From: Edaphobacter aggregans
GTDB taxonomy: Bacteria > Acidobacteriota > Terriglobia > Terriglobales > Acidobacteriaceae
Assembly (NCBI RefSeq): GCF_003945235.1
Contig: NZ_RSDW01000001.1
Coordinates: 4,950,001 to 4,982,000, forward strand
Reading direction: 5' to 3'
DNA: 32,000 nucleotides
The notes under the pieces: model-generated
Databases searched by the model: none
Seen by the model: the letters and a program-made list of their open reading frames with translations, nothing else
Told to the model about the DNA's origin: nothing
Translations under genes and position numbers: made by a program
Shown here: positions 1 through 25,383 of the stretch, piece after piece
Layout: each line of letters begins with the position of its first letter
How positions within the stretch are numbered: position 1 is the first letter of the stretch

Positions 1-2
1 CC

Positions 3-9405: not shown

Positions 9406-11691
<2,286 letters not shown>

Positions 11692-11900: not shown

Positions 11901-11931
11901 AAGGGAAAAGCTCACTCTCAAAAGAGAGAGC
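11901..11931 (-). terminator. Rho-independent terminator downstream of the tRNA/tmRNA-like 3' end (minus strand)
   Basis: Minus strand reads GCTCTCTC-TTTT-GAGAGTGAGC (bulged stem) followed by TTTTCCCTTT. It lies 34 nt after the CCA end. Confidence 0.5.
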
Positions 11932-11964
11932 AAGCATAAGTTATTGATAGTAAATATCTAATGA

Positions 11965-11992
11965 TGGTGGAGGCGGCGGGAGTCGAACCCGC
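11965..11992 (-). other. 3' fragment of a tRNA- or tmRNA-like gene (T-arm, acceptor 3' strand, ACCA); putative att core at the island border
   Basis: Minus strand reads GCGGG-TTCGACT-CCCGC-CGCCTCC-A-CCA. The ...CUCCACCA end (U70, A73) is the Ala-type identity shared by tRNA-Ala and tmRNA. No anticodon or D arm can be folded from the sequence upstream of it. Confidence 0.6.
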
Positions 11993-12029
11993 ACAGGGTA
12001 TTGAGAATAGGTAAGTTACTGAATTCAGG

Positions 12030-12064
12030 AAAGGCCAAAAGGACAAGAAAGGCCAGAAAGGCAA
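12030..12064. repeat. Four helically phased direct repeats AAAGGnCA (candidate recombinase/RDF arm-type sites)
   Basis: AAAGGCCA 12030, AAAGGACA 12038, AAAGGCCA 12048, AAAGGCAA 12057 (spacing 8-10 bp), about 40 nt inside the putative att core. Confidence 0.35.
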
Positions 12065-12070
12065 ATCGAC

Positions 12071-12087
12071 TGTACAAACGTTGTACA
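12071..12087. promoter_or_regulatory. Inverted repeat TGTACAA-ACG-TTGTACA next to the direct repeats
   Basis: Perfect 7-bp arms with a 3-nt spacer. Candidate protein binding site at the island end. Confidence 0.3.
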
Positions 12088-12360
12088 AAATCGGGCTCCT
12101 TCCACGCCTGTCCGTGGCTGCTTACCTTGCGCCAATCCGATTCTAAATGCACCTCCTGGCTACGAAACTAGATTTTCTTCGCTCCGGTGGCGGTTAAGAA
12201 CTGAGTCTAAGCTGAGCTTGAGGCGTCTGTGTTCCGAGTCAGTCCATCCGCCGGAAACGCATTTGTAGATGGGAGGTCGGAAAAGCACCTTGGACTCCAC
12301 CAAATCATCATCCTCAATCCGAACCGATCCAACACCGCAACTGCTTTCGAAGCCGATACG

Positions 12361-12645
12361 TCAAGCAATACCCTGAAGGCGACGGTGAACCCGCTGGACG
12401 ACGCTCTCCGGGACCCGGAGAGTTGAATATCCTCTCTTGAATCTGGACTCTTCGTGAATCAGCTGTAGCACTCCGGGTTCGCGGGTGAATATTCGCCGGA
12501 TCGTTCTTTCGCTTAGTTCCCAGAGCTTCGCCAGCTCAGGTACGGAATAGTGCTTTTCCAAAGCCACTCCGGACCGCGGCCTGCGTATTCCGTCGTGGTT
12601 ACTCGAGTCAAGTGAGACTGTTGTCGGAGTGTTTTGAGGTTCCAT
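12361..12645 (-). CDS. Excisionase/AlpA-type helix-turn-helix DNA-binding protein
   Basis: HYSVPELAKLWELSERTIRRIFTREPGVLQL is a MerR-superfamily/excisionase-like HTH. Start taken at the internal ATG 12645 (MEPQNTP...), which follows GAGAG. Confidence 0.55.
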   Translation of the reverse strand: MEPQNTPTTVSLDSSNHDGIRRPRSGVALEKHYSVPELAKLWELSERTIRRIFTREPGVLQLIHEESRFKRGYSTLRVPESVVQRVHRRLQGIA

Positions 12646-12883
12646 TGTCATCTCTCGTTGCCAAATTTGAAAGCGCAGCAGCGAATCCCAAGTCATCTGA
12701 GAAGTACAGGCTGGTGCCGTCACCTGTTTTCCGACAGGGGAAAACGTGCACCATGTGTGTAAAACAGGTTCGAAATTCGGTCAAATGGCTCTGACGGAGC
12801 CGCCAGGGTCGACGGTGAGGTGGGCTAGCGCCATCACTAGGGTAAGCGGGACAATGATGCTCTTGACCAATCCGGTGCTTTCG

Positions 12884-13160
12884 GAATAGGGAAAACGCCG
12901 TCCGATTCTTAAGGATCACCATCTTATCTAATTCAATTTCCGAAGCCAGATTCAGGCTGTGCGTAGACACGATGAGCTGAATATCTTGTCCGTCCGGGCG
13001 CTTCTTGCGCACTTGATCCTGTAGAAAGCGCATCAGCCTGACACTGAGAGTGCCGGTGTGCTTCGTGTTTCCTCGATGATGAGCAGAGGAAACCCGTCGT
13101 TTTCGGAAGCTAGCAGCAATAGCTCACATGCCATGAAGATGAGGCTGAGCGGTGAACATC
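12884..13160 (-). pseudogene. Decayed C-terminal remnant of an ABC/SMC-type AAA ATPase (AAA_15/OLD-like)
   Basis: Three frames together give LSLIFMACELLLLASENDGFPLLIIEE (Walker B), then HEAH.H (PEAHLHP-like), then RLMRFLQDQV...QLIVSTHSLNLASEIELDKMVILKN (H-loop). At least two frameshifts, and no N-terminal Walker A part is present. Confidence 0.55.
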
Positions 13161-13357
13161 TTGGTCGTTATGTGTAAAACGAGTCCGGGTTTCAGTCAAA
13201 TTGCTGACTACAAGCTGGGAGGAGGGGCAGTTAAATTATTGAAAAAGTGAGCCTTACCCAATCGACAGGTTCGCGTCGCTGGCGAAGAACTGATTTCAAA
13301 ATTTAGGTCCTCTTACCGTTTTAAATTTGGGGAGCATAGCTGTAACCTTGCTCAGCA

Positions 13358-13849
13358 ATGAATGCTCTTCAGAAATCGGCCGATGAAATCGCAGCTTTGC
13401 TGCGCAGTGATTCAGCTTCGGAAGAACTCAAGCAGGCTGTCCGTCTGTTCTCTGAGGTCAATGTTGGACAGGCAATGAGCGACGCAGAAATGCTCGATCA
13501 GTTGTTTACTCGTCGTTTCGAAGCATGTCATGAAGAGTTTTTGGTTCACTCCGCCTGTAATTATCCCCATAATCAGGTGGCGATCGAACGGGTGATCAGA
13601 GAAATATCGAATAGCCGTTGCGACGCCGCGACCACACGCCTGATGAAAGCTATAGACAAGCTCAGAATTGAAAATGTCCAGCCTCGTGTACAGGGGCTCG
13701 AACTCTTCGCGATAGCCCGCGCGCTGATCTGCGTAAGTGTGAAGATGACGGGGGTTGACCAAGGGCTGAAAGATGCCCAATATGTTTTCGAGGCGGTATT
13801 GGACGACCTCACTCCCATGTTGAGGGAGATGCCAAATTCAGGGAGTTAA
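13358..13849 (+). CDS. Hypothetical protein (163 aa), no recognisable domain
   Basis: Intact ORF in the AT-richer island segment. Predicted helical and soluble. Confidence 0.5.
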   Translation: MNALQKSADEIAALLRSDSASEELKQAVRLFSEVNVGQAMSDAEMLDQLFTRRFEACHEEFLVHSACNYPHNQVAIERVIREISNSRCDAATTRLMKAIDKLRIENVQPRVQGLELFAIARALICVSVKMTGVDQGLKDAQYVFEAVLDDLTPMLREMPNSGS

Positions 13850-13854
13850 AAGTG

Positions 13855-14208
13855 ATGGGACGGAGACAATTGATTCTGACGGCGGCCCTTCTTATTTCAT
13901 CCATAGGGTGCAAAGTGGATCCGAAGCCTCCAACCGAGGCGGATGGGAGGCAGGTCTGGAAGAACCTCAACACGAGGTCTGGTCTTGATGGTGATCTTCA
14001 ACTTGCCGACTTCAAGAAGACTGACGGCCAGATGGCGGAGGTCAATGGTGTCAAGGTATACACGCTCTTCTACGAATTACACGAAAAACACCTGACCAAG
14101 CTGGGCCAATGGAAGCCGGGCGATATCGAGACTATCCGGTCGAACTATGGTTTTCAGAGGACAGAAAACGGGTGGCAGGGCCCTGAAGGGACTCATTTTC
14201 CCGATTGA
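13855..14208 (+). CDS. Putative lipoprotein
   Basis: Signal peptide with lipobox (LILTAALLISSIG-C). GGGAG lies 9 nt upstream of ATG 13855; GTG 13852 is an alternative start. Confidence 0.55.
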   Translation: MGRRQLILTAALLISSIGCKVDPKPPTEADGRQVWKNLNTRSGLDGDLQLADFKKTDGQMAEVNGVKVYTLFYELHEKHLTKLGQWKPGDIETIRSNYGFQRTENGWQGPEGTHFPD

Positions 14209-14243
14209 ACGGGTTTTTTGACCTAATTTCCAATCCGTCCTAA

Positions 14244-14276
14244 TCTCCCCCGGCTGATCAATTCAACCGGGGGAGA
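14244..14276 (+). promoter_or_regulatory. Perfect 10-bp stem hairpin whose 3' arm is the Shine-Dalgarno sequence of the MoxR-like gene
   Basis: TCTCCCCCGG-N13-CCGGGGGAGA. The 3' arm ends 4 nt before ATG 14281. No U-tract follows. Confidence 0.45.
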
Positions 14277-14280
14277 CGGG

Positions 14281-15231
14281 ATGTTCGAATCGCCGGAGCA
14301 AACCCTTTCAGCACTAAACAGGGTCGGGTATTTCACCGACTGCAAGACCGCGACGACGGTTTACCTCGCCGGAAACATCAACAAGCCCATCATGCTGGAG
14401 GGTCCTGCCGGCGCAGGTAAAACGGAGCTGGCCCAGTCGGTGGCACGCGCGGCCGGAGCAGACCTTATCCGGCTGCAGTGCTATCAGGGCATCAACGAAG
14501 AAAAGGCCATCGGCCACTTCGACAAAAGTCTGCAAGAGCTGTTTGTCCTGCTCAAGACAAAATCAGAGGAAACCTGCGACTGGGCACAAATCCGCCAGGA
14601 TGTGACCAGCCGTGCGTTTTTCCTTGCCGGCCCTTTGCTGACGGCAATCGAGAGGGAAAAGCGCTGTGTTCTGCTGATCGACGAGATCGATAAGGTTGAT
14701 TACGCATTTGAGGCACTTTTGCTTGAGGTGCTTTCGGACTGGACTATTTCGATTCCGAAGATGGGTACCGTCAAAGCGACAACGGTTCCGTTTGTCTTTA
14801 TGACATCCAACCAGGAACGACGGCTCGGGGACCCTCTTCGGCGGCGCAGCTTTTACCTGATCGTTGAGCACCCGACGGCCGAGAGGGAAGCGGCGATCGT
14901 CAAAAGCAAGACCCCAACGGCTACTGCCGCAACCCATCGTTTCATCGCTGGCCTCGCGAAAGCGCTTCGCTCCTTCAATCTCGAAAAGCCACCGAGTATC
15001 TCGGAGATGAATGACGTGGCCCAGGCCATGCAGTTGCTCAGCATGGAAGAGATCCTGGCCGTTCACAAAGACATCATGCTTCCGTTGATCGTGAAGACCG
15101 AAGGCGATCGCAAGCGAATGCTTATGAAGCAGGCATTTGAGGTGATTATCTACACGGCCCAGAGGAACGCCGAAGCGATGGAGGCCCAGGAGGTTGCGGC
15201 GACAATCGCAAGGTTGGAGGCAAGTGCATGA
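14281..15231 (+). CDS. MoxR-like AAA+ ATPase (AAA_5/CbbQ-NorQ-type)
   Basis: Walker A GPAGAGKTELA, LIRLQCYQGINEEKAIGHFD, Walker B VLLIDEIDKV, and sensor region TSNQERRLGDPLRRRS. Its stop overlaps the next start (ATGA). Confidence 0.8.
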   Translation: MFESPEQTLSALNRVGYFTDCKTATTVYLAGNINKPIMLEGPAGAGKTELAQSVARAAGADLIRLQCYQGINEEKAIGHFDKSLQELFVLLKTKSEETCDWAQIRQDVTSRAFFLAGPLLTAIEREKRCVLLIDEIDKVDYAFEALLLEVLSDWTISIPKMGTVKATTVPFVFMTSNQERRLGDPLRRRSFYLIVEHPTAEREAAIVKSKTPTATAATHRFIAGLAKALRSFNLEKPPSISEMNDVAQAMQLLSMEEILAVHKDIMLPLIVKTEGDRKRMLMKQAFEVIIYTAQRNAEAMEAQEVAATIARLEASA

Positions 15232-15734
15232 GAGGGAAGCTAGTCGTGGCATTTTTCGCCGCTATGTCACTGAGTGCGGCGGCGCAAAGCTCACGCTCTT
15301 CCGAATTTACTGCTCCGGAGTCCGTGTACTACGCCAACGCATACGCTGACCACTACGGCGTTCCCCGCGAGCTGGTCCACGCAGTCATCGCGCAGGAATC
15401 TGGCTGGAATCAGCGTGCTCTCTCCGGAAAGGGCGCTATCGGACTCATGCAGTTGATGCCCGACACCGCAATCCGCTTCTCGGTGCAGAACCCCACCTCT
15501 ATTCAGGACAACATCGGCGGGGGCGTTCGCTACCTTGCCAAGCTCAGCGAACTCTTTCATGGCGATCTGCGCATGGTGGTTGCGGCCTACTACTGTGGCG
15601 AACACCACATTCTTACAAGTGGCCTGCGCTACCACAACGCCGAAGTGATCGCGTATGTCGGCTCGGTCGAGAAGAGGTACGAACGTGAGTTGGCGCTTCA
15701 TCATCCCGGCAACCTGAAAGGAACAGGACAATGA
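15228..15734 (+). CDS. Lytic transglycosylase (SLT domain), VirB1-like
   Basis: Signal peptide, then catalytic-Glu motif AVIAQESGWNQRALSGKGAIGLMQLMPDTA...VVAAYYCG. Confidence 0.8.
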   Translation: MRGKLVVAFFAAMSLSAAAQSSRSSEFTAPESVYYANAYADHYGVPRELVHAVIAQESGWNQRALSGKGAIGLMQLMPDTAIRFSVQNPTSIQDNIGGGVRYLAKLSELFHGDLRMVVAAYYCGEHHILTSGLRYHNAEVIAYVGSVEKRYERELALHHPGNLKGTGQ

Positions 15735-16708
15735 GAACTGTCTGCAATTGCATTTATGTCGCTATTACACTCGCATTCACAGCAGGCGGCTTGTGCCAGC
15801 AAGTGAAGGTGCAAGCGGTGACTGCGCCGCTCGCGGACCGCAAGTCTGAGCCAGTCGTGAGCGATGTCACGGTCTCGAAGGCAGCCGTCACCGATGTGCA
15901 TCTGCGGCCGCTCTTCACGACGACCATCCGTTTGCCTGATGCGGTCTCCTCCGTCGCTGTCGGTGCGCCGACTCTGTTTGAAGCCGAACATGCAGACCAG
16001 GAACCGCGGCTGGTCTACATCAAGCCCGCGACGAAGCAGCCCGCGGAGAGCAACCTCGTGATCACCATGCGGTCCGGTGAGACGATCAGCATGCGATTGA
16101 TTTCGGACGGGAACTCCGCCCTGAACGAACCGGTGGACTACATCGTCGATTACAAGCCGCAGGAGAGCTTCTTCATCGGATCATCCGATCCGATCACGCA
16201 GAAATCTCAGGCCCAGCGCACGGAAGAGAAGCATGACCCGCTCGATCTAGCTCTTCAGGGGCAGGCGCGAGTGTCCACGCCAGCCTGGCAGTCGAGCACC
16301 GCGCTCGATGAGAAGACGAGCAAGATAAGTTCTCCCTCCATCGTCGGGGCTCTGGGCGAAATCCGGGAGATCAACGGAAGGATGTTGGTGGCCTACTCCG
16401 TACGAAATCAGAGCAATCACTGGATTGAGGTGCTTCCGCCGCAGATCGAGGTAAGCAGCCCGGGCGACAAGAGCGAAATTAAGAAAAAAGACAGGAAGCA
16501 CATCGTCGAGGCGGAACAAGTCCCGGTAAACAGCTTCAAGGTCAATGGCCGCCGCCTAGCTCCTGGCGAAAGAGTGGATGGAGTCGTGACCTTCGATCGT
16601 CCCGGATTCAAGCAGAGCCAGGAAAGACTGCTTCTCGAGCTGGCCTCGGCCAACTCGGTTGATAAGCCCCTGTTGCTTCCAGTTCCGTTCGTCGCGCCCG
16701 GTAACTAA
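15731..16708 (+). CDS. VirB9/TrbG-like outer-membrane-complex protein (paralog 1)
   Basis: Signal peptide. The N-domain pattern VHLRPLFTTTIRLPDAVSSVAVGAPTLFEAEH...LVYIKPATKQPAESNLVITMRSGETISMRL matches the VirB9/CagX/TrbG fold signature. The C-terminal beta-domain is shared with the ORF at 30528. Confidence 0.55.
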   Translation: MRTVCNCIYVAITLAFTAGGLCQQVKVQAVTAPLADRKSEPVVSDVTVSKAAVTDVHLRPLFTTTIRLPDAVSSVAVGAPTLFEAEHADQEPRLVYIKPATKQPAESNLVITMRSGETISMRLISDGNSALNEPVDYIVDYKPQESFFIGSSDPITQKSQAQRTEEKHDPLDLALQGQARVSTPAWQSSTALDEKTSKISSPSIVGALGEIREINGRMLVAYSVRNQSNHWIEVLPPQIEVSSPGDKSEIKKKDRKHIVEAEQVPVNSFKVNGRRLAPGERVDGVVTFDRPGFKQSQERLLLELASANSVDKPLLLPVPFVAPGN

Positions 16709-16735
16709 TTCAGCTCTATTCCAAGGAGAATCCAT

Positions 16736-18013
16736 ATGCCGATGCCCAACCCACTTCCTGAAAGGGAAGAAGCGAATGTTCCTAGAGAGGAGGGGCACGT
16801 GGTTCCTCTCGATTCCTCTTCTGCCGAGCTCAAACCCTTCGTTTTGCCGAATCGGACCGGAGGCAAAGGAGGAAAAGACAAGACCGCCAAGATGCTGCTG
16901 ATTATGATCGGTGCCGTGATTCTTTTCGTAACCTTCTTTGGGTTTATTTCAACCAAGGGGTTGCACAAGAAAAAGGCCAGTGCTGATGAGGCAGCAAAGC
17001 CAAACCTAGGGAGAGTAGTCACGCCCAGCGCCCCTGGAGCACTCATACCAAGTGACAAGATGGCGGTGCCTCCCGCTGCGGGAAAGAGCGGTACACTCGA
17101 CGCGAGCGACATTGAAAAGACGAAGGCCCCTGTTACTGGCAGTGCCGCGGCAACTGCCGGCGCCAGTTCGGCGGCGCAAAAGGGCAGCGTTTCGGCTAAC
17201 AAGACGCTGGGAGATGTGGCTCAATTCCAGCAGCCGAATACCGATCCGGAACACCTGAAGAACTGGAAGCCGGAACCGTATTCAGGCACAAACCAGGGAA
17301 ACAACGCTTCGCAGTCCCAGGAGATCCAGAAAGAACAAGATGAGTTTTCAAAGCCCTCTGTGGTCTTCGTCGCCCACGAAACAACAGGGTCGCAGCGGGG
17401 TGGCATCCAGATGCAGCCGGAACCCGACAACTTCGGTTTAGAATCCGGCTACCATGTCGCAGCAAGACTGGAAGCAATGGCGAGTACCGCATTGCACGCG
17501 CCGGTGACCGCGGTGATCGAATACAACTACGATCGCAATGGAAAAATTCTTATACCGGCAGGTGCTCGCGCAGTCGGCAAAATCGCGCAGGCAGACGCCA
17601 CGGGGATTTTAGATATCCAGTTCAGTTCGATTGAGCTGCAGGATGGTCAATCCATTCCCATCTCAGCGATTGCAGCCACTACATCCCTGCAGGCATTGAA
17701 GGGACAGGTAACAGGAAAGAATGCTGGTCGCAGTTTCGCCATCCGCTCCCTGGCAGGTCTGGGACAAGCTGGAGCAATGCTCATCGGACAGGGAAATATC
17801 AATAGTGCAATCAGCGAGTCGGACATGATTCGCGAGCGAGCGGCGGAAAACATCGGCAACAGCGCGGACGCTCAGGTGATGAATCTAATGACGACGCAGC
17901 ACATTGTTGTCAGCGTTCCCGCTGGCACAGAGATCTACCTGATCTTCACCAAGCCTCAAAAGGTCAATCCAACTGCGGCCCAGACCATATCCGTTGCAAC
18001 CAACACTCAATAG
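16736..18013 (+). CDS. VirB10/TrbI-like protein
   Basis: N-terminal tail, one TM (LLIMIGAVILFVTFFGFI), an Ala/Pro-rich linker, and a C-terminal TrbI domain (ARLEAMASTALHAPVTAVIEYNY...ILIPAGARAVGKI...SVPAGTEIYLIF). AAGGAG RBS present. Confidence 0.8.
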   Translation: MPMPNPLPEREEANVPREEGHVVPLDSSSAELKPFVLPNRTGGKGGKDKTAKMLLIMIGAVILFVTFFGFISTKGLHKKKASADEAAKPNLGRVVTPSAPGALIPSDKMAVPPAAGKSGTLDASDIEKTKAPVTGSAAATAGASSAAQKGSVSANKTLGDVAQFQQPNTDPEHLKNWKPEPYSGTNQGNNASQSQEIQKEQDEFSKPSVVFVAHETTGSQRGGIQMQPEPDNFGLESGYHVAARLEAMASTALHAPVTAVIEYNYDRNGKILIPAGARAVGKIAQADATGILDIQFSSIELQDGQSIPISAIAATTSLQALKGQVTGKNAGRSFAIRSLAGLGQAGAMLIGQGNINSAISESDMIRERAAENIGNSADAQVMNLMTTQHIVVSVPAGTEIYLIFTKPQKVNPTAAQTISVATNTQ

Positions 18014-18034
18014 CGGACCCTCTCTTCGAGAGGA

Positions 18035-18066
18035 ACGGGCGGCCGAGCGCCGCCCGTTTTGTTTTT
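18035..18066 (+). terminator. Rho-independent terminator after the virB10-like gene
   Basis: ACGGGCGGC-CGAGC-GCCGCCCGT followed by TTTTGTTTTT. Confidence 0.8.
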
Positions 18067-18451
18067 GCTCTTCTTCGCAAACGAGTAAAAGTACACACGA
18101 TGCTCTTCTTCGCAAACGAGTAAAAGTACACACGATGCTCTTCTTCGCAAACGAGTAAAAGTACACACGATGCTCTTCTTCGCAAACGAGTAAAAGTACA
18201 CACGATGCTCTTCTTCGCAAACGAGTAAAAGTACACACGATGCTCTTCTTCGCAAACGAGTAAAAGTACACACGATGCTCTTCTTCGCAAACGAGTAAAA
18301 GTACACACGATGCTCTTCTTCGCAAACGAGTAAAAGTACACACGATGCTCTTCTTCGCAAACGAGTAAAAGTACACACGATGCTCTTCTTCGCAAACGAG
18401 TAAAAGTACACACGATGCTCTTCTTCGCAAACGAGTAAAAGTACACACGAT
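18067..18451. repeat. Eleven perfect head-to-tail copies of a 35-bp unit (GCTCTTCTTCGCAAACGAGTAAAAGTACACACGAT)
   Basis: 385 bp = 11 x 35 with no mismatch seen and no spacers. It starts on the first base after the terminator T-tract. Confidence 0.97.
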
Positions 18452-18603
18452 GGCAGGAATGTGGAGCTATTTCCCGTAGTTCTGGGTGTGCGACGGCAAG
18501 ATTGGTTGGAACGAAGCGTTCCCCGGACAGATTTATCGGGCTGCTGCCGAATTTCTAAGTGGTGAAGATATCCCGTTGGCCCACTTCTGTGGAATTGCGG
18601 CAT

Positions 18604-18632
18604 TTGATCGAATGCGGAGATCGCCTTATGTT
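18604..18632 (+). promoter_or_regulatory. Candidate sigma70-type promoter of the pilin operon
   Basis: TTGATC-N17-TATGTT, 38 nt upstream of ATG 18671. Confidence 0.25.
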
Positions 18633-18670
18633 TCCTTCGCGGCGGCAACCCCGCCGAGGAGAAAACACGA

Positions 18671-19072
18671 ATGCTCATTCTCTTCCGTCAGTCCCGAGCC
18701 GCAATCGCTCGCCGGCTCGGCCGCTTCTCGCAGCAGTTGATGTTTCTGCTCACCATTTCTTTCGTTGGGGCGGCGTGCCTTGCTCCAGCGGGAGTAATGG
18801 CGCAGAACCTTGGCACCACTCCCGCAGTTGGTCAGGCAGTACAGGGCCAGACGGCATCCCAGCCGGAAGGCGCTTTTCTCAACGTAGTCAACTGGATCGG
18901 CAATGTCATCTGCCCGGTAGGTGCCGGTCTGGCAGTGGTGGGCACGATCATCATGTGGCGCAGTGGACGGAGCTGGCTTCCGGCTGCCGCGACCGCCGGT
19001 GGTCTGCTCGCGGTCTCGGGCATTACCCGCTTGATCGAGTACTTCATCCAGAACGGTCAGGCGGTGGGATAA
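18671..19072 (+). CDS. VirB2/TrbC-like pilin precursor
   Basis: Long leader ending ...PAGVMAQ, then two hydrophobic helices (FLNVVNWIGNVICPVGAGLAVVGTIIMW ... AAATAGGLLAVSGITRLIEYF). AGGAGAA RBS present. Confidence 0.65.
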   Translation: MLILFRQSRAAIARRLGRFSQQLMFLLTISFVGAACLAPAGVMAQNLGTTPAVGQAVQGQTASQPEGAFLNVVNWIGNVICPVGAGLAVVGTIIMWRSGRSWLPAAATAGGLLAVSGITRLIEYFIQNGQAVG

Positions 19073-19075
19073 ACC

Positions 19076-19759
19076 ATGACGCCGCCGCTGATCTTCCGAG
19101 CTCTCCTTGGACTCCTCATGACTGTAGCCGTGCCGGCTTCATTGGCAGCCTTTGTATTGGCTGGCATGAAGCTACGGAATGAGGGCGGGGTGAACTACCA
19201 GGCCAGTGGCGGCTTCCTTAAGTGGCTGTTCTGGGGAGCGCTCCTGCTTACACTACCCGGAGTAAGCACGTGGCTGGTACAGGAGTCTGTGCCAGGAGCT
19301 GGCCAGCTGGCGCTAGGTGGACCGTCTACTCCCTATACCAACGGCCTCAACCACGTCGTCAACGACTTCGTAGACGACGTCCTCGTCTCGCACATTGTTC
19401 CCGTCCTCGCGGCGGCGCTGGTCTTTAAGGCTTTGCTTGATCTCTCGCAGGGAGTCAACCCTCTCGCGTCGATCGTGACTGCGATGTTTCTGCTCGGGAT
19501 CCAGGGAATTTACAAGGTCGCGACCGGCAGTTGGCTGACGAGCGGGGCCTACAGTACGACCGACTTCCTTATGGGCGCATTCAATTATGTTGCTGGCACC
19601 ATCAGCCCGATGGTGGGCGGCCTTGCAATCTCAGCAGGAATCCTCGCCTTTGTTCAGCACAAGCAATGGAAGGTCTTTGTTGCAAGCGGCATTGGATTTC
19701 TAAGTGTGAGCGGCCTATGGGCGCTGGTGAAGAGCTGGACAGGAGTGACACTGACATGA
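19076..19759 (+). CDS. Polytopic membrane protein containing two pilin-like modules
   Basis: LNHVVNDFVDDVLVSHIVPVLAAALVF...ASIVTAMFLLGIQGIYKV and FLMGAFNYVAGTISPMVGGLAISAGILAF...ASGIGFLSVSGLWALVKSW both repeat the pattern of the 18671 pilin. Confidence 0.55.
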   Translation: MTPPLIFRALLGLLMTVAVPASLAAFVLAGMKLRNEGGVNYQASGGFLKWLFWGALLLTLPGVSTWLVQESVPGAGQLALGGPSTPYTNGLNHVVNDFVDDVLVSHIVPVLAAALVFKALLDLSQGVNPLASIVTAMFLLGIQGIYKVATGSWLTSGAYSTTDFLMGAFNYVAGTISPMVGGLAISAGILAFVQHKQWKVFVASGIGFLSVSGLWALVKSWTGVTLT

Positions 19760-19974
19760 ATCGTTTCCTCAATTTCGTCGCACGGTCCTCGCAAGCCCTC
19801 GCCATTGTGGACGTAGCGTTGATGTTTGCGCTGGTGGTCCAGGTCGGATTCAGATCCGTAACTATGGAGAGGACCGGCTCCTGGAAGAGCAGTGAGCCGG
19901 GTATCCACCCCGACTGGAAAATCGACTTCCGCAATCCGTTTGAAACCATCTCCTCGATAGAGGACAGCATATGA
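19756..19974 (+). CDS. Small membrane protein (72 aa)
   Basis: One TM (ALAIVDVALMFALVVQVGF). ATGA overlap with both neighbouring genes. Confidence 0.45.
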   Translation: MNRFLNFVARSSQALAIVDVALMFALVVQVGFRSVTMERTGSWKSSEPGIHPDWKIDFRNPFETISSIEDSI

Positions 19975-20261
19975 GCAATAGCAGAATTTCCGTGTTAGTA
20001 CCGCAGATCGTGCTCTTTGCCGTGAGTGTTCTGATGCTGCTACAGGGAGTGGGGTTTGTGTTGCATCACCAGTTGAGCCGAGCGCTTCTGGGAGCCGGCC
20101 TGTTCCTGCTCCTGCCATGTCTCCTTGTCGCAGGATGCGCATGGGGACTGCGCAAATTGTGGCTGTTGATAGGGAGAGCATGCATGTTCCTGATCGCGAC
20201 TGGTGCTCCGCTCAGATCGATACGGGCCTTGCTTCGCCATAAAAGGCAGGTTCAGCCATGA
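19971..20261 (+). CDS. Small polytopic membrane protein (96 aa)
   Basis: Three hydrophobic helices. ATGA overlaps on both sides. Confidence 0.45.
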   Translation: MSNSRISVLVPQIVLFAVSVLMLLQGVGFVLHHQLSRALLGAGLFLLLPCLLVAGCAWGLRKLWLLIGRACMFLIATGAPLRSIRALLRHKRQVQP

Positions 20262-20716
20262 ACTCAGGCTCTTTCGATCAGGGAATCCTCAACATGACCA
20301 ACTGGCTCGGGAATGGCATTATGCCTGTGCTGGCTGCGCTCATGATCGCGATGGGAATTTATTGCTTTTCACGTGGGAGAGACTTCGAACGATGGATCTG
20401 GGGAGCGCTGGGCTCCTTGTCGGTGTCAGGTTTGCTCCGTCTCGCAGAGGCCTTTGCGAGGCAGGGTTCCGGTTCCGGGCAACTCTTTCAGGCGCTGCTG
20501 ACGCTCACCGACTGGATCTGCAATGTAATCCTTCCCGTTTACGCAGGCCTGGAAGTTGTGCGTGCGGTTCTTGGCGTGAGCGGCGTCGGCTCGCGCCTCA
20601 ACATTGGCGACGACTGGCTGCGGCATGTGGTCGTAGCCTTTGCGGCGTTGTCCTGCTCAGGCTTGATTCGACTGCTAGAGCACTTCGTGTCCGCTGGGAC
20701 AGGAGGGGTGGCGTGA
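20258..20716 (+). CDS. Tandem double VirB2-pilin-like protein, no obvious signal peptide
   Basis: ILNMTNWLGNGIMPVLAALMIAMGIY...GALGSLSVSGLLRLAEAF and LLTLTDWICNVILPVYAGLEVV...VVAFAALSCSGLIRLLEHF are two copies of the pilin module within one chain. Confidence 0.55.
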   Translation: MNSGSFDQGILNMTNWLGNGIMPVLAALMIAMGIYCFSRGRDFERWIWGALGSLSVSGLLRLAEAFARQGSGSGQLFQALLTLTDWICNVILPVYAGLEVVRAVLGVSGVGSRLNIGDDWLRHVVVAFAALSCSGLIRLLEHFVSAGTGGVA

Positions 20717-21057
20717 TGGCATTGCGTGTGAGTCCGGTTTCGCGAAATCTTGCCTTGAAGGTGACGATCATGTTTCTCGAGATCGAGGACCTACTGGCGC
20801 TTGGGTTTGCCTGCGCGGTTGCGATGATCGCAGGGCAGTTTGTCTTCTCCGATCGCTATGTGTTCTCGATCCCGATGAACTGGTTTTTGGTGCTTGTGGT
20901 TGTCGGGCTTGGTGTGCCGGGCCTAATGCTCTTCAAGTATGGCAAACCGAGAAAGTACATTGCGGACCTTCTGGGGTGCCACAGCCAACCGCACAGCTAC
21001 TGCGCGCTCGCCCGAGACACCCAGTTGAAAACTCACTATTTGGAAGAGAGGAACTGA
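20716..21057 (+). CDS. VirB3/TrbD/TraL-like protein
   Basis: 113 aa with two TMs (LLALGFACAVAMIAGQFVF; FLVLVVVGLGVPGLMLF) followed by KYGKPRKYIADLL, directly upstream of virB4. GTG 20713 is an alternative start. Confidence 0.5.
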   Translation: MALRVSPVSRNLALKVTIMFLEIEDLLALGFACAVAMIAGQFVFSDRYVFSIPMNWFLVLVVVGLGVPGLMLFKYGKPRKYIADLLGCHSQPHSYCALARDTQLKTHYLEERN

Positions 21058-23781
21058 ATGCCCAAGACTCGTGAAGCACACAAGCGTTCTTTGGAGGATC
21101 CCGCCTTCTGCGAGCTACTTCCCATGAGGGACCTACTGGACAACGTGATGGTCCGAACCGACGGCAGCTACGTCGCGGGATTTCGCCTGTCCGGTGCGCT
21201 AACTTACTTCGGTGATGACGACAGCCGCAATGAAACCAAAGAGCTGGTGGAATCGCTTCTGCGTACAGTACCGGAGCAGAGTATGCGGCTCCAATTCCGT
21301 TATGAAGTGGTGGAAGGCCTCACGGGCCTGCTGGCGCGTTACGAAGACCATCGGCGTACCGACAATCCCGAAGCGCTAATACTGGACCGCTATCGCGTGA
21401 AGCAGTGGAGCACGAAGGAAGCGCAAGGCGAATATCTCACCCGACTCGCTGCCGTCTACCTGATCTGGGACCCGGAGAGGCATCGGCGGTTGATGGCAGC
21501 CGCGGGCGGTCAGATGAAACGAAGTGGAGACAAAAACAGTAAACATCCGTTCTCTCTGTCACTCCACAAGTGCATTGAACGATCGAAAAAAGAACATACG
21601 GACGCTCTAGCCGAGTTTGAATCCATCGTCAGCGGCGTGCAGTCGTCCCTGAATCGAGCGGCGATGGGTCCAGAGCGGATGAACCATGAAGAGCTTTTCC
21701 TCGAGATTAAGAGGGCGCTCAATCCGACGCTGCCGGATACGGCGGAGCTTAGGGACTTCGATCTCTCTCCGCGATATGTGTCGGCGCGAGAACAGGCCGC
21801 GATCGTCTCCATCCTTGGAGATGCGGAGAACTACCTCAATATCGATGGCCTGCTCTGGAGCATCATCACGTTGAAGGTGCCTCCGGATGGCACGTACCCG
21901 GGCATTCTGCGGTCGTTGTTGACGGTCGGTTTTCCGCTTGTGATTTCCACCCAGGTCACAGTACCGGACCAGCGTGCAGTCCTCGACAAGTACAAGAAGC
22001 GCCTGAAGAAGATGCAGGCAGCGCAGATCGATTCAAAAGGGAATCGAAGGGTCGATATTGAAGCGCAGGTTGCAACGCAGGAACTTATCGATATTCAGGC
22101 CGAGATCCTGGCGAGTTCGGTGAAGACGACCAAGGTAAGCCTGACGATCGCTGTCCGCACTTCGCTGCCGGCGTTCAGCAGTCACGAGTATGAGGCTGCG
22201 GAGCGCGAACTATCGAACCGGCGCCAGCAGGTCCTCCACATCGTCTCGCAGCTCAACGGGGCACGTGCCTACGGTGAATCCCTGGCGCAGAGGAGATTGC
22301 TGATCTCCACCATGCCGGGAATGGCGTCCGAGGATAGCCGGGACCATGACCTGCTCACTACCCACGCGGCGGATCTCCTCCCGGTAGAGATGCCGTGGGC
22401 CGGGACACCTAGAACGCCGCTGATGCTCTTTGAAACGCCATACCGGCAACTGATTCCGTTCTCTCCGTTCGATGCCGGACTGGAGAACGCGAACGCCATC
22501 GTTGCCGCCGCCTCCGGAGCAGGCAAAAGCGTAGTCGTCGGGCGAATGCTGTTGACCTGCAGCCGGCAGGATGTGCAGATCTCGATCATCGAGCGTGGAG
22601 ATTCCTACTTCCCGGCCGTGACATATATGGGCGGCCAGATGATCTCTATGTCGCTCGATAGCCTGCAGACGATCAACCCGTTCGATCTTGAGGTTGATGA
22701 GCATGGCCCGTCGAACGACCATCTTGCTTTTTTGAAGAACCTCACGCGCTTCATGATCGGCGACAGTGGAGGAGCCGACGCTGACCTGTTGGACAATCTT
22801 CTGCTCACGGCCATTGAGAAGACCTATAACCGGGCTGCCATGCGGTCGGGCAGCAGGATCCCGACTTATAGCGACCTGAAAGATGAGCTCGAAAATTACC
22901 ATGACGAGGACAAGAACGAGATCATAAATCAGGAAGCAAGACTCGCCGCCACGAAGTTGCGCGCATGGGTGGAGAACGGAATGTATGCGAACCTGTTCGA
23001 CCGTCCCACCACGGTTGATATGTCGGCGCCCTGGCTCTACTTCAATATCGAACAGCTCAAGGACGACCCAAAGCTGGAGACTGCGATGAGTCTGCTGATC
23101 GCGTATGCGACCAATAAGCGGGCTATGGGCAAGGGAAACAAGCGATGCGTCACGGTTCTCGATGAGTGCTGGTCCCTGCTGCAATCGCCAAGTCTAGGGC
23201 CCGTCGTCGTGCAGTTATTCAGGACAGCACGCAAACGGAACGCCTGCGTATGGGGACTTTCGCAGGCGGTAGAAGACTTCACCGGCACACCGGACAAGCC
23301 AAACGAATTTGGCGGCGCAATCCTTACCACCACGGCAACGAAGCTGATTGGCCGGCAGAAGGGGAATATTGATGTGCTTCGCCAATTCGTCCACCTGAAT
23401 GAGACGGCCATTCATCGCGTCAAGAACCTGGGCATGACGGAGAAGGGCAAAAAGAGCGAATTCCTTCTAGTAATCGGCGAGAAGTCAGAGACGACGCACA
23501 GCTTGTATATCGTGACGACGCCGCTCGAGTACTGGCTGTTGACCACTTTTCCGCGGGAGAAGTGGTACAGGCAGTACTGGCTTAAGAAGCATTCCCACCT
23601 CACACCAACGGAAGCCTATGAGCGACTCGCCGCGGCATTTCCGCGCGGCCTGTCGACGCTGGATGAATTGCCGGAAGAAAAATCCGGCGAGGTTATGACG
23701 GTTGCACTCGGACGATCGAGTTCCGTGGCCATGGCAAAAACCATCATTCAAATTGAAGAAGACGCATTACAGGAGGTATAG
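21058..23781 (+). CDS. VirB4/TrbE/TraC-type conjugation ATPase
   Basis: 907 aa. Walker A AAASGAGKSVVVG, Walker B CVTVLDECWSLL, and a C-terminal motif region (GLSQAVEDF). Confidence 0.9.
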   Translation: MPKTREAHKRSLEDPAFCELLPMRDLLDNVMVRTDGSYVAGFRLSGALTYFGDDDSRNETKELVESLLRTVPEQSMRLQFRYEVVEGLTGLLARYEDHRRTDNPEALILDRYRVKQWSTKEAQGEYLTRLAAVYLIWDPERHRRLMAAAGGQMKRSGDKNSKHPFSLSLHKCIERSKKEHTDALAEFESIVSGVQSSLNRAAMGPERMNHEELFLEIKRALNPTLPDTAELRDFDLSPRYVSAREQAAIVSILGDAENYLNIDGLLWSIITLKVPPDGTYPGILRSLLTVGFPLVISTQVTVPDQRAVLDKYKKRLKKMQAAQIDSKGNRRVDIEAQVATQELIDIQAEILASSVKTTKVSLTIAVRTSLPAFSSHEYEAAERELSNRRQQVLHIVSQLNGARAYGESLAQRRLLISTMPGMASEDSRDHDLLTTHAADLLPVEMPWAGTPRTPLMLFETPYRQLIPFSPFDAGLENANAIVAAASGAGKSVVVGRMLLTCSRQDVQISIIERGDSYFPAVTYMGGQMISMSLDSLQTINPFDLEVDEHGPSNDHLAFLKNLTRFMIGDSGGADADLLDNLLLTAIEKTYNRAAMRSGSRIPTYSDLKDELENYHDEDKNEIINQEARLAATKLRAWVENGMYANLFDRPTTVDMSAPWLYFNIEQLKDDPKLETAMSLLIAYATNKRAMGKGNKRCVTVLDECWSLLQSPSLGPVVVQLFRTARKRNACVWGLSQAVEDFTGTPDKPNEFGGAILTTTATKLIGRQKGNIDVLRQFVHLNETAIHRVKNLGMTEKGKKSEFLLVIGEKSETTHSLYIVTTPLEYWLLTTFPREKWYRQYWLKKHSHLTPTEAYERLAAAFPRGLSTLDELPEEKSGEVMTVALGRSSSVAMAKTIIQIEEDALQEV

Positions 23782-23783
23782 CA

Positions 23784-24551
23784 ATGCGCGTTGACAACGT
23801 TTCCCGGAGAGCGATGAAGGTGTCCACCATTGGAGTGGCAGTACTCCTGGTGGTTCCGACGGCCGCAAAAGCGCTGAGCTGGGACATCTTCAGCGTGATC
23901 GACTCAACGATCAGCAAGGATATAGGCGGTGCGCTCCAGTCGGTGAACAGCATCCAGAACTCCCTGCGACAGGACGAGCAGCAACTGCTGTTTCCCGTGG
24001 CCCTGATCAACCAGTCCCACAATTACATCCACACCATCGTAACGAGCTATCGCTCGTGGATGACGGGCGTATTCGCGCTTCCGATCAACAGTGCCCAGCT
24101 GCCAGGCAGTCAGGCATTGGAAAGTGTGTTTCTCAGCGGTTCCTCGTCTTCGATTGGCAACCTGGACAGCGTTTACAACGCTTCTTACGGCGGCGTGCCG
24201 CCGGCAACGGCCGCGCCGCAGGCCCACCGGCACATGATGGACATGGATGACGCGCTCGCCAAGGACTCGCTCGCCCAATCGGTCGCCGCAGACCAGGTGA
24301 GCGGCAATCTTCTCCAGATTGCAAACCACATCGAATCGGAAGCCTCCACCACCGCCCCTGGCACCGCCGACATTTTGTCAGCCACAGCCCGGGCGGCGGA
24401 ACTGGAAGGTCTGGCGAGTCAACACAAGCTTCTCGCAGCCATGCTGCGGGAGGAGGCGGCCAATCTCGCCCATCATAACGGGGTGCTCAAACAGAGCGTG
24501 GGACAGGCACAGCAGTTGAACAACAACTTGCAGGGAACGCTTGGCCAATAA
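23784..24551 (+). CDS. VirB5/TrbJ-like secreted coiled-coil protein (paralog 1)
   Basis: Signal peptide (VAVLLVVPTAAKA), helical Q/A/L-rich body, and position after virB4. AGGAGG RBS present. Confidence 0.45.
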   Translation: MRVDNVSRRAMKVSTIGVAVLLVVPTAAKALSWDIFSVIDSTISKDIGGALQSVNSIQNSLRQDEQQLLFPVALINQSHNYIHTIVTSYRSWMTGVFALPINSAQLPGSQALESVFLSGSSSSIGNLDSVYNASYGGVPPATAAPQAHRHMMDMDDALAKDSLAQSVAADQVSGNLLQIANHIESEASTTAPGTADILSATARAAELEGLASQHKLLAAMLREEAANLAHHNGVLKQSVGQAQQLNNNLQGTLGQ

Positions 24552-24570
24552 CAGATGAAGGAGTGGCGTC

Positions 24571-25374: not shown

Positions 25375-25383
25375 GAGACAAAC

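Follow-up and report, generated by a model that had tools for sequence, protein, structure and literature searches.

The window, that is, the whole 32,000-nucleotide stretch of DNA analysed here, contains parts of a T4SS gene cluster in which an upstream operon ends with a TrbI/VirB10-family gene and a downstream cluster begins with a gene for a small membrane protein. An intrinsic terminator, an array of tandem repeats, a spacer and a putative promoter lie between the two genes (Table 1). The downstream cluster has the same orientation as its first gene, extends to at least position 31379 and comprises the pilin-like gene, VirB4, a VirB8-like gene and the element's own RNA polymerase.

Table 1. 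Features of the array, of a single unit and of the flanking region
Feature	Position	Strand	Sequence or basis
TrbI/VirB10-family gene, 425 aa, last in upstream T4SS operon	16736..18013	+	homologs with PF03743, named TrbI/VirB10
Intrinsic terminator: 12-bp stem, 8 G-C pairs, 5-nt loop, T-run	18032..18066	+	hairpin scan
Head-to-tail array of 11 identical 35-bp units	18067..18451	+	TRF and exact search
One unit, L arm	pos 1-10 of 18067..18101	+	GCTCTTCTTC
One unit, R arm	pos 11-20 of 18067..18101	+	GCAAACGAGT
One unit, tail	pos 21-35 of 18067..18101	+	AAAAGTACACACGAT
Array-promoter spacer, 152 bp	18452..18603	+	between clades, length kept, sequence not
Palindrome GGAACG-AAG-CGTTCC in spacer	18508-18522		sequence
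Putative sigma-70-type promoter TTGATC-17-TATGTT	18604..18632	+	invariant columns, alignment A2
5′-UTR hairpin CGGCGG/CCGCCG, then GAGGAG ribosome-binding site	18640..18661	+	invariant columns, alignment A2
133-aa small membrane protein, putative pilin-like	18671..19072	+	first gene of downstream cluster
Predicted two-barrel (QDE-1/phage gp64-like) RNA polymerase, 806 aa	27683..30103	+	fold, invariant D456, D458, D460

The array and its surroundings in the window

TRF reported a single array (18066-18452, period 35, 11.1 copies, 100% matches, no indels), and exact search placed 11 head-to-tail copies of the unit GCTCTTCTTCGCAAACGAGTAAAAGTACACACGAT at 18067-18451. No copy of GCTCTTCTTCGCAAACGAGTAAAAGTACACACGAT with three or fewer mismatches was found outside the array across the 32-kb window, and there was none in 100 shuffles. 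A PWM scan of the window gave 11 hits, all within the array, compared with 0-1 in shuffles. In related loci the same scan gave one motif cluster each, always between virB10 and the pilin-like gene, and a metagenome scan revealed real motif copies in no context besides this interval. An interspersed repeat of the REP/BIME or MIRU type was rejected on these grounds, as there is one cluster per locus and no dispersed copy in the window, the related loci or the metagenome scan.

The array starts one base past the T-tract of the terminator, whose hairpin (18032-18060) with its T-run is the strongest terminator-like hairpin within 11600-31500, and it ends 152 bp before the promoter-like site. In related loci, a GC-rich hairpin visible in the sequences likewise follows the virB10 stop. 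An earlier analysis made from the letters alone (the sequence-only reading) had described 11 perfect 35-bp repeats that begin right after the T-tract and end about 150 nt from a candidate promoter, and these results bear out that description; the promoter-like site is kept in all relatives, which also have the homologous motif at the same site only. An assembly artefact, considered in the same reading, appears unlikely because arrays also occur in other assemblies (10 units in the related locus L011 and 7.5 diverged units in L079). The contig names of L011 and L079 suggest long-read assemblers, and short-read contigs end within the array.

The gene labels given in the sequence-only reading stood in part. 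Relatives of the product of 16736..18013 carry the PF03743 TrbI domain, in keeping with the name virB10, but the window protein itself gave no Pfam match above threshold. The label pilin/virB2 is plausible from the protein architecture of the 133-aa product, but its fold model was of low confidence (pLDDT 64.5) and had no PDB match. The polymerase noted at 27683 agrees with a predicted two-barrel RNA polymerase fold: the model (pLDDT 82) matched the structures 5fsw_A (E = 1.9e-13) and 8f72_A (E = 8.9e-8). This gene lies 9 kb downstream of the array in the same orientation, and no other conserved nucleic-acid enzyme was identified in the cluster. The putative promoter TTGATC-17-TATGTT, with 8 of 12 consensus matches, falls under the threshold of the consensus scanner, which called no promoter-like site in 17500-19200; it is located 42-45 nt from the ATG in all 18 of 18 loci.

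Several known classes were compared with the unit. The units abut with a start-to-start distance of exactly 35 bp and no spacers, so a CRISPR array was rejected, as was a coding repeat, since 35 is not a multiple of 3 and any change in copy number shifts the frame; both exclusions had been anticipated from the letters alone. Three minus-strand ORFs do exist over the array (17885-18448, 17964-18446 and 18007-18678), and they were rightly taken as periodic artefacts, because the 35-nt period is stop-free and one unit more or fewer shifts the frame. Likewise, the mini-ORF MLFFANE-stop, present here in 10 copies and regarded as incidental, is not conserved, as units of L012 and class C differ. By reading, a sigma-70 promoter in each unit was rejected (poor hexamers; the conserved C30 and C32 misfit a -10 element), as were a sigma-54 promoter (wrong GG/GC spacing) and a DnaA box (only T-N3-CACA in common with the consensus TTATNCACA). 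An intrinsic terminator in each unit was also rejected, as inspection found weak stems or large loops and the scanner reported none. No Rfam match was obtained at gathering thresholds in the whole window or at E ≤ 1 in 17950-18720, and no tRNA or tmRNA was found.

Conservation, turnover and cargo in related loci

A motif homologous to the unit was found between virB10 and the next gene, in the same orientation, in more than 40 loci, and it was present and co-oriented with virB10 in every related locus covering the interval (VirB10 identity from 96% to about 45%). As judged by this comparison, an uncharacterised T4SS/ICE family of Acidobacteriaceae carries the array as a constant feature. Searches of PLSDB with proteins and DNA gave no plasmid relatives. 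Copy numbers of 1-11 and a period of 35 or 36 bp are seen in near relatives, and distant relatives have periods of 74-103 bp, values of 74, 80-86, 91 and 102 bp among them. The units were grouped into classes A, B and C and a distant class. An element of the distant clade (P0089) occurs in Edaphobacter aggregans. The register was exactly 35 bp in 17 of 17 near-clade loci, diverged arrays included.

The number of copies per locus was 1 in L002, at least 4 in L001 and L081, 6 in L012, 10 in L011 and 11 in the window as assembled, and L050 contains single motif copies. Contigs encoding an identical 133-aa downstream protein nevertheless differed in their arrays and copy numbers. In descriptive terms, the array fits the class of VNTRs. 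Each near-clade lineage has a private homogenised unit variant, indicating concerted evolution, and the diverged multi-copy arrays of L013, L079 and L015 imply that the multi-copy state has persisted. The sequence-only reading had taken perfect identity as a sign of recent expansion or homogenisation and possibly variable copy number, and had proposed a comparison across strains. The lineage-specific variants and the differing copy numbers among near relatives agree with it. These data indicate that the array turns over quickly between strains and that its position and core sequence are kept across deep divergence.

The variation from 1 to 11 copies among strains with an identical downstream protein, the perfect homogenisation of the longest arrays and the single-copy allele of L002 are compatible with a neutral minisatellite, in which at most one ancestral site would be functional, and expansion and contraction by slippage would have no effect. 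This explanation is distinctly improbable in our view, given that multi-copy arrays persist through deep divergence with their diverged units keeping the same positions, that the 35-bp register is exact and free of indels, and that the unit core stays conserved amid intergenic DNA that becomes unalignable with divergence.

Between virB10 and the pilin-like gene, distant relatives contain gene-sized modules flanked on both sides by motif copies in + orientation, which lie, for example, at 7324, 8418, 9827 and 11405 in L041 and at 7342, 8066, 10673 and 11701 in L043; the motif, confined to a single site in the window, recurs between cargo modules in these loci. The modules carry cargo of unrelated kinds (Fic, IS, methyltransferase, RT, ResIII, MacB, GH16, nitroreductase/TetR, SpoIIE and IS91 with integrase). 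The modules lie within the linker between two cores, and their left and right boundary sequences are conserved, this conservation being limited to one sub-clade. In the near clade, a phage-like gene directly follows unit 2 in L028, and nearly all loci of this clade have the array without cargo. In L055-type loci a cargo gene is located between the promoter and most of the array. One motif copy is always kept just upstream of the downstream operon even after cargo insertion, and the final copy in distant loci lies 250-300 nt from the ATG without exception, including where cargo has been inserted upstream. The array locus is the cargo hotspot of the element family.

The bracketed modules, their unrelated contents with shared boundary sequences, the insertion after unit 2 in L028 and the hypervariable copy number raise the alternative that cargo docks or recombines at the array, with the units serving as sites or portable homology and the cargo-free array representing the empty state. 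We regard this as unlikely. No dedicated recombinase adjoins the array, a tyrosine recombinase being found only inside one cargo (L050), and the near-clade arrays are almost free of cargo. Several inserts are self-mobile and bring their own targeting, the conserved boundaries belong to one sub-clade only, and direct repeats 35 bp apart were judged too close for synapsis. Furthermore, the array fills much of the only large non-coding gap between operons, and insertion there might be passive.

Anatomy of the unit

To define the anatomy of the unit, 42 unique units were aligned and analysed for column composition, within-array constraint and arm covariation. The positions C2, C4, T8, C10, G11, C12, G17, G19, A21, A23, A24, C30, A31 and C32 are conserved family-wide. 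The unit has a partly palindromic centre (family consensus TTTGCGCAAA), whose outer arms covary, and a conserved asymmetric tail with an A-tract/CAC box. Among 12 arrays whose units have diverged, the same columns are spared from change (variance test, 0/5000). Retained positions group near 10-12, 17-24 and 30-32, a spacing of roughly one helical turn. Analysis of the arms showed that 81-82% of cells pair compared with 30-47% when the arms are slid, and the covariation score was 0.267 versus 0.183 ± 0.017 in shuffles, none of 500 reaching it. Two overlapping dyad registers gave identical pairing statistics and are not separable, because they share arms. The weak dyad described in the sequence-only reading is indeed weak in the window unit, but it is a degenerate form of a clear, covarying, family-wide dyad.

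Covariation of the arms might also arise if the array worked as single-stranded hairpins in RNA or transferred ssDNA, for example as a single-strand origin or priming site. On the + strand, G.T mismatches exceed A.C mismatches (70:34 and 52:18 for unique units; 19:3 and 22:4 for locus consensus units), which agrees with such hairpins; the excess of 19:3 counts against recognition of double-stranded DNA, which does not predict it. We nevertheless consider hairpins of this kind very improbable, and a conserved RNA or ssDNA hairpin was rejected as a class, as the strand preference in folding was inconsistent across loci. The window + strand folded worse than shuffled sequence (z +2.8), and the fold stability of its minus strand may derive from GU-repeat pairing. 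Rfam gave no match even at the relaxed threshold, the array is placed after a strong terminator and before a promoter-like site, and the outer arms in L073 are non-complementary. The absence of a consistent single-strand fold favours recognition of double-stranded DNA.

Possible function of the array

The distance from the start of the last unit to the -10 hexamer was 209-213 bp in 12 of 18 loci, which belong to two clades with non-aligning spacers, and 212 bp in L081; other clades show 219-301 bp, and the spacing shared by only two clades could be coincidental, because the loci within each clade are related. We tentatively favour, as possible rather than probable, the reading that the array works in cis as a series of protein-binding sites coupled to the promoter of the downstream operon. 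A sequence-specific DNA-binding protein, which the element itself probably encodes, would recognise the units in double-stranded DNA, with each 35-bp unit forming one site from its partly palindromic centre and asymmetric A-tract/CAC box. The promoter-proximal unit sits about 210 bp from the -10 element of the sigma-70-like promoter, a roughly fixed distance equal to some 20 helical turns, and protein bound at the array would control this promoter from upstream, in the manner of an operator or enhancer. The copy number would shift, and the units become homogenised, through replication slippage or unequal recombination, and copy number may tune the amount of protein held at the array. In favour of this reading are the conserved site and orientation of the motif, its restriction to this locus, the constraint on each unit, the covarying arms, the exact register, the near-constant distance to the promoter and the persistence of multi-copy arrays. 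The single unit of L002 and the single copies of L050 imply that multiple copies are not essential, and the clade-dependent period (35, 36, 74, 80-86, 91 or 102 bp) implies that helical phasing between sites is not conserved.

Two further observations count against this reading. Cargo separates most of the array from the promoter in L055-type loci, and no binding protein was found. The 120-aa excisionase-like HTH protein encoded at 12361-12723 is the only HTH protein near the cluster, and it was rejected as a universal ligand of the array, being near the T4SS in only 5 loci; no recognisable DNA-binding domain was found in the other cluster proteins. The general idea of a cis-acting protein-binding array, put forward in the sequence-only reading, is still the best-supported one, but the membership in sopC-type or iteron arrays suggested there is unsupported.

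The conserved QDE-1/phage-gp64-like polymerase encoded in the cluster offers another candidate ligand. The units may be promoters or loading sites private to this enzyme, heading the operon that encodes it, either for a self-amplifying feedback switch of the downstream operon or for priming of the complementary strand on transferred ssDNA. Phage two-barrel RNA polymerases related to it recognise promoter motifs of their own (PMC10770324). The asymmetry of the motif, its constant orientation along the downstream genes and the retention of one copy upstream of the operon after cargo insertion would suit such a role. We nevertheless judge a polymerase array improbable: over 19 kb of the element no further gene group is preceded by the motif, which is absent before the first T4SS operon and before the polymerase gene, some of the modules that it brackets carry genes on the opposite strand, and a conserved sigma-70-like promoter already follows the array. 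Array and polymerase are linked by co-occurrence only, and literature searches on two-barrel RNA polymerases in conjugative elements found nothing relevant. If this explanation were true, the conjugation genes would have a host-independent switch, with a copy re-established downstream of each cargo insertion.

A centromere-like or relaxosome-accessory site of the sopC, stbS or TraM sbm kind, which would segregate or present the excised element, appears quite unlikely. Tandem direct repeats that each contain a dyad, the tolerance of one to many copies and the position next to the transfer genes of a conjugative element are in its favour, and the contig name of one relative (ERZ26858887 ctg239409) suggests a 112-kb circular molecule at 479x coverage. 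Against this, the window and the related loci examined yielded no gene for ParA, ParB, StbA, an RHH protein or a relaxase, and Pfam and NCBIfam revealed no partition operon either in the window or among the genes called in L011, L012, L079 and L080. A roughly constant distance to a promoter would be needless for a centromere, and a tandem array of nic sites should, by reasoning only, collapse on transfer.

Whether the array is read as promoter-coupled protein-binding sites, as we prefer, or otherwise, it marks the junction of the two main transfer operons of a widespread T4SS/ICE family with hundreds to thousands of metagenome homologs. Acidobacteria are among the most abundant soil bacteria and, to our knowledge, their mobile elements have hardly been studied experimentally; literature searches, including those for tandem repeats of Acidobacteria ICEs and for the MadB AAA ATPase, found no description of the array or the element family. 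If the array serves the transfer operon as a control or loading site, it would give a direct handle on how the element is switched on, and the region may explain both regulation and cargo acquisition of these elements. The array can also be used as a VNTR marker at the level of strains, and short-read assemblies systematically break at it.

Comparison with known systems

Plasmid iterons are Rep-binding direct repeats of 17-22 bp with a period of about 22 bp. The array resembles them as a set of direct repeats in one orientation on a mobile element. It differs in its period (35/36 or 74-103 bp) and in being embedded in a T4SS cluster; Pfam searches of the window and the related loci revealed no Rep-family gene, and reading of the unit and flanks gave no convincing DnaA box or AT-rich unwinding region. 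Iteron membership, which had been suggested from the architecture, is not supported.

In the sopC centromere of the F plasmid, a 43-bp unit is repeated 12 times in tandem, and SopB binds a short inverted repeat within each unit. Like sopC, the array is made of head-to-tail repeats of tens of bp with a dyad in each, lies downstream of a gene on a conjugative element and is carried in many copies where one may suffice. Unlike sopC, it has a period of 35 rather than 43 bp, lies between two T4SS operons at a near-fixed distance from a promoter and has a conserved asymmetric unit tail, and no sopA/sopB or ParA/ParB homolog was found nearby. Dyad-bearing repeats like those of a sopC/parS-type centromere are present, but no adjacent partition operon was found in the window or in the related loci examined.

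The distant-relative loci are reminiscent of integron attC/cassette arrays in that co-oriented dyad motifs part diverse modules in one hotspot. An integron cassette array was rejected, as no IntI or attI adjoins the array and its flanks are virB10 and the pilin-like gene. Unlike integron cassettes, the modules can be multi-gene, with genes on either strand, and include self-mobile elements, and the cargo-free tandem state is common.

Arrays of binding sites are also known from transfer regions, such as the stbDR repeats bound by StbA in R388 and the TraM sites sbmA-C upstream of the tra genes in F, and the excision proteins of CTnDOT act upstream of its tra operon. No homolog of StbA or TraM, nor a universally present Xis homolog, was detected for the array. 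The likeness lies in repeated protein-binding sites, putative in the array, ahead of pilus/Mpf genes. The known sites are short clusters of 9-12-bp repeats, whereas the array family has strictly tandem, hypervariable units of 35-103 bp in up to 11 copies.

Finally, promoter VNTRs or contingency repeats, such as the 7-bp repeats upstream of H. influenzae hmw, tune gene expression. The hmw repeats and the array have in common that intergenic tandem repeats of strain-variable copy number precede a surface-structure operon. The hmw repeats lie within the promoter, whereas the array is located 150-600 bp upstream of it, and the array is further set apart by its far longer unit, its internal conserved motif and dyad, and its family-wide conservation.

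Repeat array and its genetic context

TRF analysis of the window yielded one outstanding tandem repeat (18066-18452, period 35, 11.1 copies, 100% matches), and an exact search found GCTCTTCTTCGCAAACGAGTAAAAGTACACACGAT in 11 head-to-tail copies, bearing out the eleven perfect 35-bp repeats described in the sequence-only reading. No extra copy was found in the window at up to three mismatches, and none in shuffled sequences. The array starts one base past the T-run of a terminator; the promoter-like site downstream is followed by a short leader with a conserved hairpin, a GAGGAG site and an ATG at 18671. The array region matched no Rfam family, and no tRNA was detected in the window. The array was rejected as a CRISPR array, and the three minus-strand ORFs across it were rejected as coding since a stop-free 35-nt period produces such ORFs, in agreement with the earlier view of them as artefacts. 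The mini-ORF at the unit junctions, also regarded earlier as incidental, is not conserved in relatives.

Window positions 1-11700 appear chromosomal (ECF sigma factor with DUF6596, MacB/FtsX, MFS, MarR and KatG), and a divergent type IV secretion cluster on the + strand starts at about 13.3 kb. Its first gene group encodes a 163-aa protein, a 118-aa protein with an N-terminus resembling, by eye, a lipoprotein signal, an AAA ATPase, an SLT transglycosylase, a VirB9-like protein and a 425-aa protein. The terminator, the array and the second gene group follow in that order, the latter encoding a 133-aa membrane protein, several small proteins, a VirB4/TraC ATPase, a VirB8-like protein, an 806-aa protein and a second VirB9/TraN-like protein. 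PF03743 (TrbI/VirB10) is present in homologs of the 425-aa protein, the named ones coming from Edaphobacter and other Acidobacteriaceae. In the close relative L012 a tyrosine integrase and an HTH_17 gene immediately precede the cluster; another relative, L080, has coupling-protein fragments downstream. The cluster is thus an ICE-type conjugation module. No relative was found among PLSDB plasmids.

In the 133-aa protein a long leader ends in AxA|QN and a basic loop links two hydrophobic helices, an architecture that matches VirB2/TrbC pilins; pilin identity was confirmed neither by Pfam or NCBIfam nor by a fold search. It and its 152-aa paralog form a pair conserved in most loci. For the AAA+ ATPase, the closest NCBIfam model was 'MadB family AAA-type ATPase' (E=1.2e-65, under the cut-off) and the PDB matches were midasin/MoxR-like; we know of no ATPase of this type among classical T4SS components.

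Features of the window and of related loci
Feature	Sequence	Positions	Strand	Remarks
Probable left end of element	Window	11700-13350		GC content falls
Direct repeats GGGCGGAGAACCCGC and GGGAGTCGAACCCGC	Window	11823 and 11978		By eye resemble tRNA T-arm remnants; no tRNA there by ARAGORN
18-bp tandem repeat	Window	12026-12061		
Excisionase-like HTH gene	Window	12361-12723	-	
ORF	Window	12608-13033	-	Looks by eye like an ATPase-gene fragment; no Pfam hit
AAA+ ATPase	Window	14281-15231	+	Best-conserved cluster protein, 69-96% identity across loci
Terminator	Window	18032-18060, then T-run	+	12-bp stem; strongest terminator-like site of the 20-kb gene cluster
Array	Window	18067-18451		
Palindrome GGAACG-AAG-CGTTCC	Window	18508-18522		In array-promoter spacer; window clade only, with small changes
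Promoter-like site TTGATC-17-TATGTT	Window	18604-18632	+	Begins 152 bp beyond array end
Promoter-like site, hairpin CGGCGG-caacc-CCGCCG and GAGGAG	Window	18604-18670		Invariant down to ~50% VirB10 identity
152-aa paralog of pilin-like protein	Window	20258-20716	+	~37% identity over 81 residues
806-aa RNA polymerase (predicted)	Window	27683-30103	+	Between VirB8-like and second VirB9/TraN-like genes, within T4SS operon
Chromosomal element copy	L080	4168-16606		Contig shared with L018; VirB4 and coupling-protein genes split into fragments
Run of N within array	L016	7412-7525		Repeat left unresolved by MAG assembly
Unrelated DNA after two units	L028	7324-8002		Siphovirus Gp157-family protein on minus strand; pilin-like gene absent
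Cargo-hotspot loci	L040, L041, L043, L044, L045, L046, L050, L051, L055, L058, L059, L070			

Distribution and turnover of the array

Scanning genomes with a VirB10 profile gave 60 loci, and almost all bear the label of Acidobacteriaceae MAGs. For L019, L069 and L072 the bin label is Acetobacteraceae, Alphaproteobacteria or Solirubrobacterales and not Acidobacteriota; misbinning or transfer beyond the phylum could explain this. In the near clade (50-96% VirB10 identity), TRF and a consensus scan detected a 35-bp-period array in 17/17 loci, in each case following the virB10 terminator, preceding the pilin-like gene and comprising 2-7 units spaced exactly 35 bp start to start, even at 20-40% unit divergence. 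A metagenome motif scan added L073 (5 units, 36-bp period) and L075. The relative L079 has 7.5 diverged units on a contig that, to judge by its name, may be a 112-kb circular molecule; this contig (ENA ERZ26858887, ctg239409_478.99x_c, 112142 bp, ~479x coverage) carries a relative of the whole cluster and could represent either a plasmid or the element excised and amplified. L080 appears to be decaying and still has a 3-unit array. Distant loci (44-57% VirB10 identity) have tandem arrays with periods of 74, 80-86, 91, 102-103 or 162 bp; in a hand alignment of the L050 sequence with the window unit, their core GAAAGAAGAAAAGCTGCRTACCAGGCTTTTGTTGAA agreed at 20/31 positions with the near-clade R arm, tail and following L arm.

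In the window the near-clade PWM scored 11 hits of at least 8 bits, all in the array (0-1 in shuffles), and in each related locus it hit one cluster, oriented as virB10; a metagenome scan gave four other matches, isolated and in T4SS-unrelated DNA. Across the window, the related loci and the metagenomes scanned, the motif is thus locus-specific, and an interspersed repeat was rejected; within the window, the search for the 35-mer elsewhere proposed in the sequence-only reading returned only the array. Taken together, the array is real and not peculiar to one genome, a family-specific cis-element where two transfer operons meet.

An identical 133-aa protein is present on 18 metagenome contigs, most of which break off within the repeat, as short-read assemblers are expected to do. 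The contigs spanning the array have 1 unit (L002) and 4 units (L001), the latter probably a lower bound, 140 nt being about the assembler word size. L011 (VirB10 94%; contig name suggesting a long-read assembler) has 10 units, L012 has 6 non-identical units, and L081 has 4 on a 938-kb contig. Copy number thus ranges from 1 to 11 in the window and its close relatives, a variability that the sequence-only reading had listed among the possible implications of perfect identity. Each lineage has a private unit variant; the variants diverge at positions 5-7, 18 and 32-34, and each is homogenised along its array, in line with the recent expansion or concerted maintenance also listed there. On some contigs the promoter-proximal and the distal units are of different types. 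These patterns indicate concerted evolution with fast copy-number turnover, and the 11 perfect copies of the window are the extreme case.

Constraint on the unit

The consensus from 42 unique aligned units was GCTCnTTTGCGCAAACGGGTAAAAGTACACACATT, with G11, G19 and A24 invariant and C2, C4, T8, C10, C12, G17, A21, A23, C30, A31 and C32 at least 90% conserved. In the 12 arrays with non-identical units, within-array differences were very uneven over the 35 columns (0/5000 permutations matched the observed variance). The same columns are fixed array after array and cluster near 10-12, 17-24 and 30-32, about one helical turn apart, a spacing that we infer would be expected from contacts on one side of the double helix. 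The array is conserved in place, orientation and core, and its units are individually constrained, with copy number turning over rapidly; a neutral VNTR is considered improbable.

The L arm (1-10) and R arm (11-20) form an imperfect palindrome centred on GCGC and, because the units are tandem, the R arm also lies opposite the next unit's L arm across the 15-nt tail. In both registers the arms pair in 81-82% of cells vs 30-47% with slid partners; double-sided changes numbered 29 vs 10.6 and 25 vs 10.7 in shuffles (0/500 reached the observed values), and the covariation score was 0.267 vs 0.183. Lineage arm pairs are GCCC/GGGC, GCTC/GAGC, TCTT/AGAG and CTTC/GAAG. With related rows, these statistics are supportive, not decisive. 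The weak dyad reported earlier holds for the window unit with its degenerate palindrome (by eye, 6 of 9-10 symmetric positions), but not for the family.

Pairing arms might form single-strand hairpins. Mismatches on the + strand showed more G.T than A.C (70:34 and 52:18 in unique units; 19:3 and 22:4 in locus consensus units), which hints at + strand pairing. However, predicted folding gave no consistent strand preference, some loci favouring + and others -. The + strand of the window array folded worse than shuffles (-54.1 vs -70.4+/-5.9 kcal/mol), and its minus strand had a more stable predicted fold, possibly from GU repeats pairing with each other. The outer arms of L073 have no complementarity at all, and the array lies past a strong terminator and ahead of a promoter-like site. 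We therefore favour double-stranded DNA recognition, which does not predict the G.T excess, and regard hairpins as very improbable.

Promoter, polymerase and cargo

In alignment A2, TTGATC-17-TATGTT with the leader hairpin and ribosome-binding site is the best-conserved non-coding sequence of the region. In 18/18 loci the -10 and the ATG are 42-45 nt apart, and the distance from last-unit start to -10 hexamer is 209-213 bp in 12/18 and 212 bp in L081. The latter loci belong to the window clade and the 'class C' clade, whose spacers do not align with each other; other clades have 219-225, 248, 285 or 301 bp, and the ATG of distant loci invariably lies 250-300 nt from their last motif copy. About 210 bp corresponds to 20 helical turns and to 6 unit lengths; common to two clades only, this constancy is suggestive and no proof. 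Our leading reading of the array is as predicted protein-binding sites coupled to the downstream promoter, which is plausible but short of probable.

Of the more than 1500 homologs of the 806-aa protein, none is named or has a Pfam domain; the protein has an invariant GGDFDFD motif. Its AlphaFold model (pLDDT 82, pTM 0.75) matched the QDE-1 RdRP (E=1.9e-13), phage P32 gp64 RNA polymerase (E=8.9e-8) and P74 gp62 (E=6.1e-7 and 7.0e-7, two chains). The protein is thus predicted to be a two-barrel single-subunit RNA polymerase, which upholds the polymerase proposed at this locus earlier. To our knowledge, such an enzyme has not been described as a conjugative-element core gene. The array could be a promoter array for this polymerase, an idea kept alive because the related two-barrel polymerases gp64 and gp96 of Thermus phage P23-45 use private promoter motifs (PMC10770324). 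However, the PWM found the motif upstream of no other gene group in the window and the link is one of co-occurrence only; this role has a low probability.

The array region is the distant clade's cargo hotspot: about a dozen of its loci carry 2-5 kb of accessory DNA in the interval from the virB10 end to the pilin-like gene. Motif copies, all in + orientation, flank this cargo on both sides and separate its modules, whose genes lie on either strand. The cargo is unrelated between loci: Fic/DOC, DDE transposase, methyltransferase, reverse transcriptase, ResIII helicase, PMT_2 glycosyltransferase, MacB/FtsX permeases, a lectin-GH16 protein, an IS91-type transposase with tyrosine recombinase, nitroreductase with TetR, SpoIIE and short-chain dehydrogenase. 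One sub-clade has conserved module boundaries (left …GAAGACTCTTCAAAGGTCAGC…, right …AAGCGATATCAATTAAGCAAAG…), the insertion point falling within the linker between two cores. In near-clade L028 (78% VirB10), a Sipho_Gp157 phage-like gene directly follows unit 2; a prophage, some other insertion at the array or a chimeric contig may explain this. On one reading the array is a permissive gap where insertions survive; on the other, units take part in cargo capture. The co-oriented copies bracketing unrelated modules fit a cargo-docking or recombination platform, but the gap reading would also account for them, and the platform is doubtful.

A centromere or relaxosome site is improbable. The array did not qualify as a sopC-type centromere, as an iteron array or as integron cassettes, so the resemblance to sopC and iterons drawn earlier did not hold as membership. 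Its likeness to known tandem binding-site arrays of mobile elements would lie in its proposed way of working.
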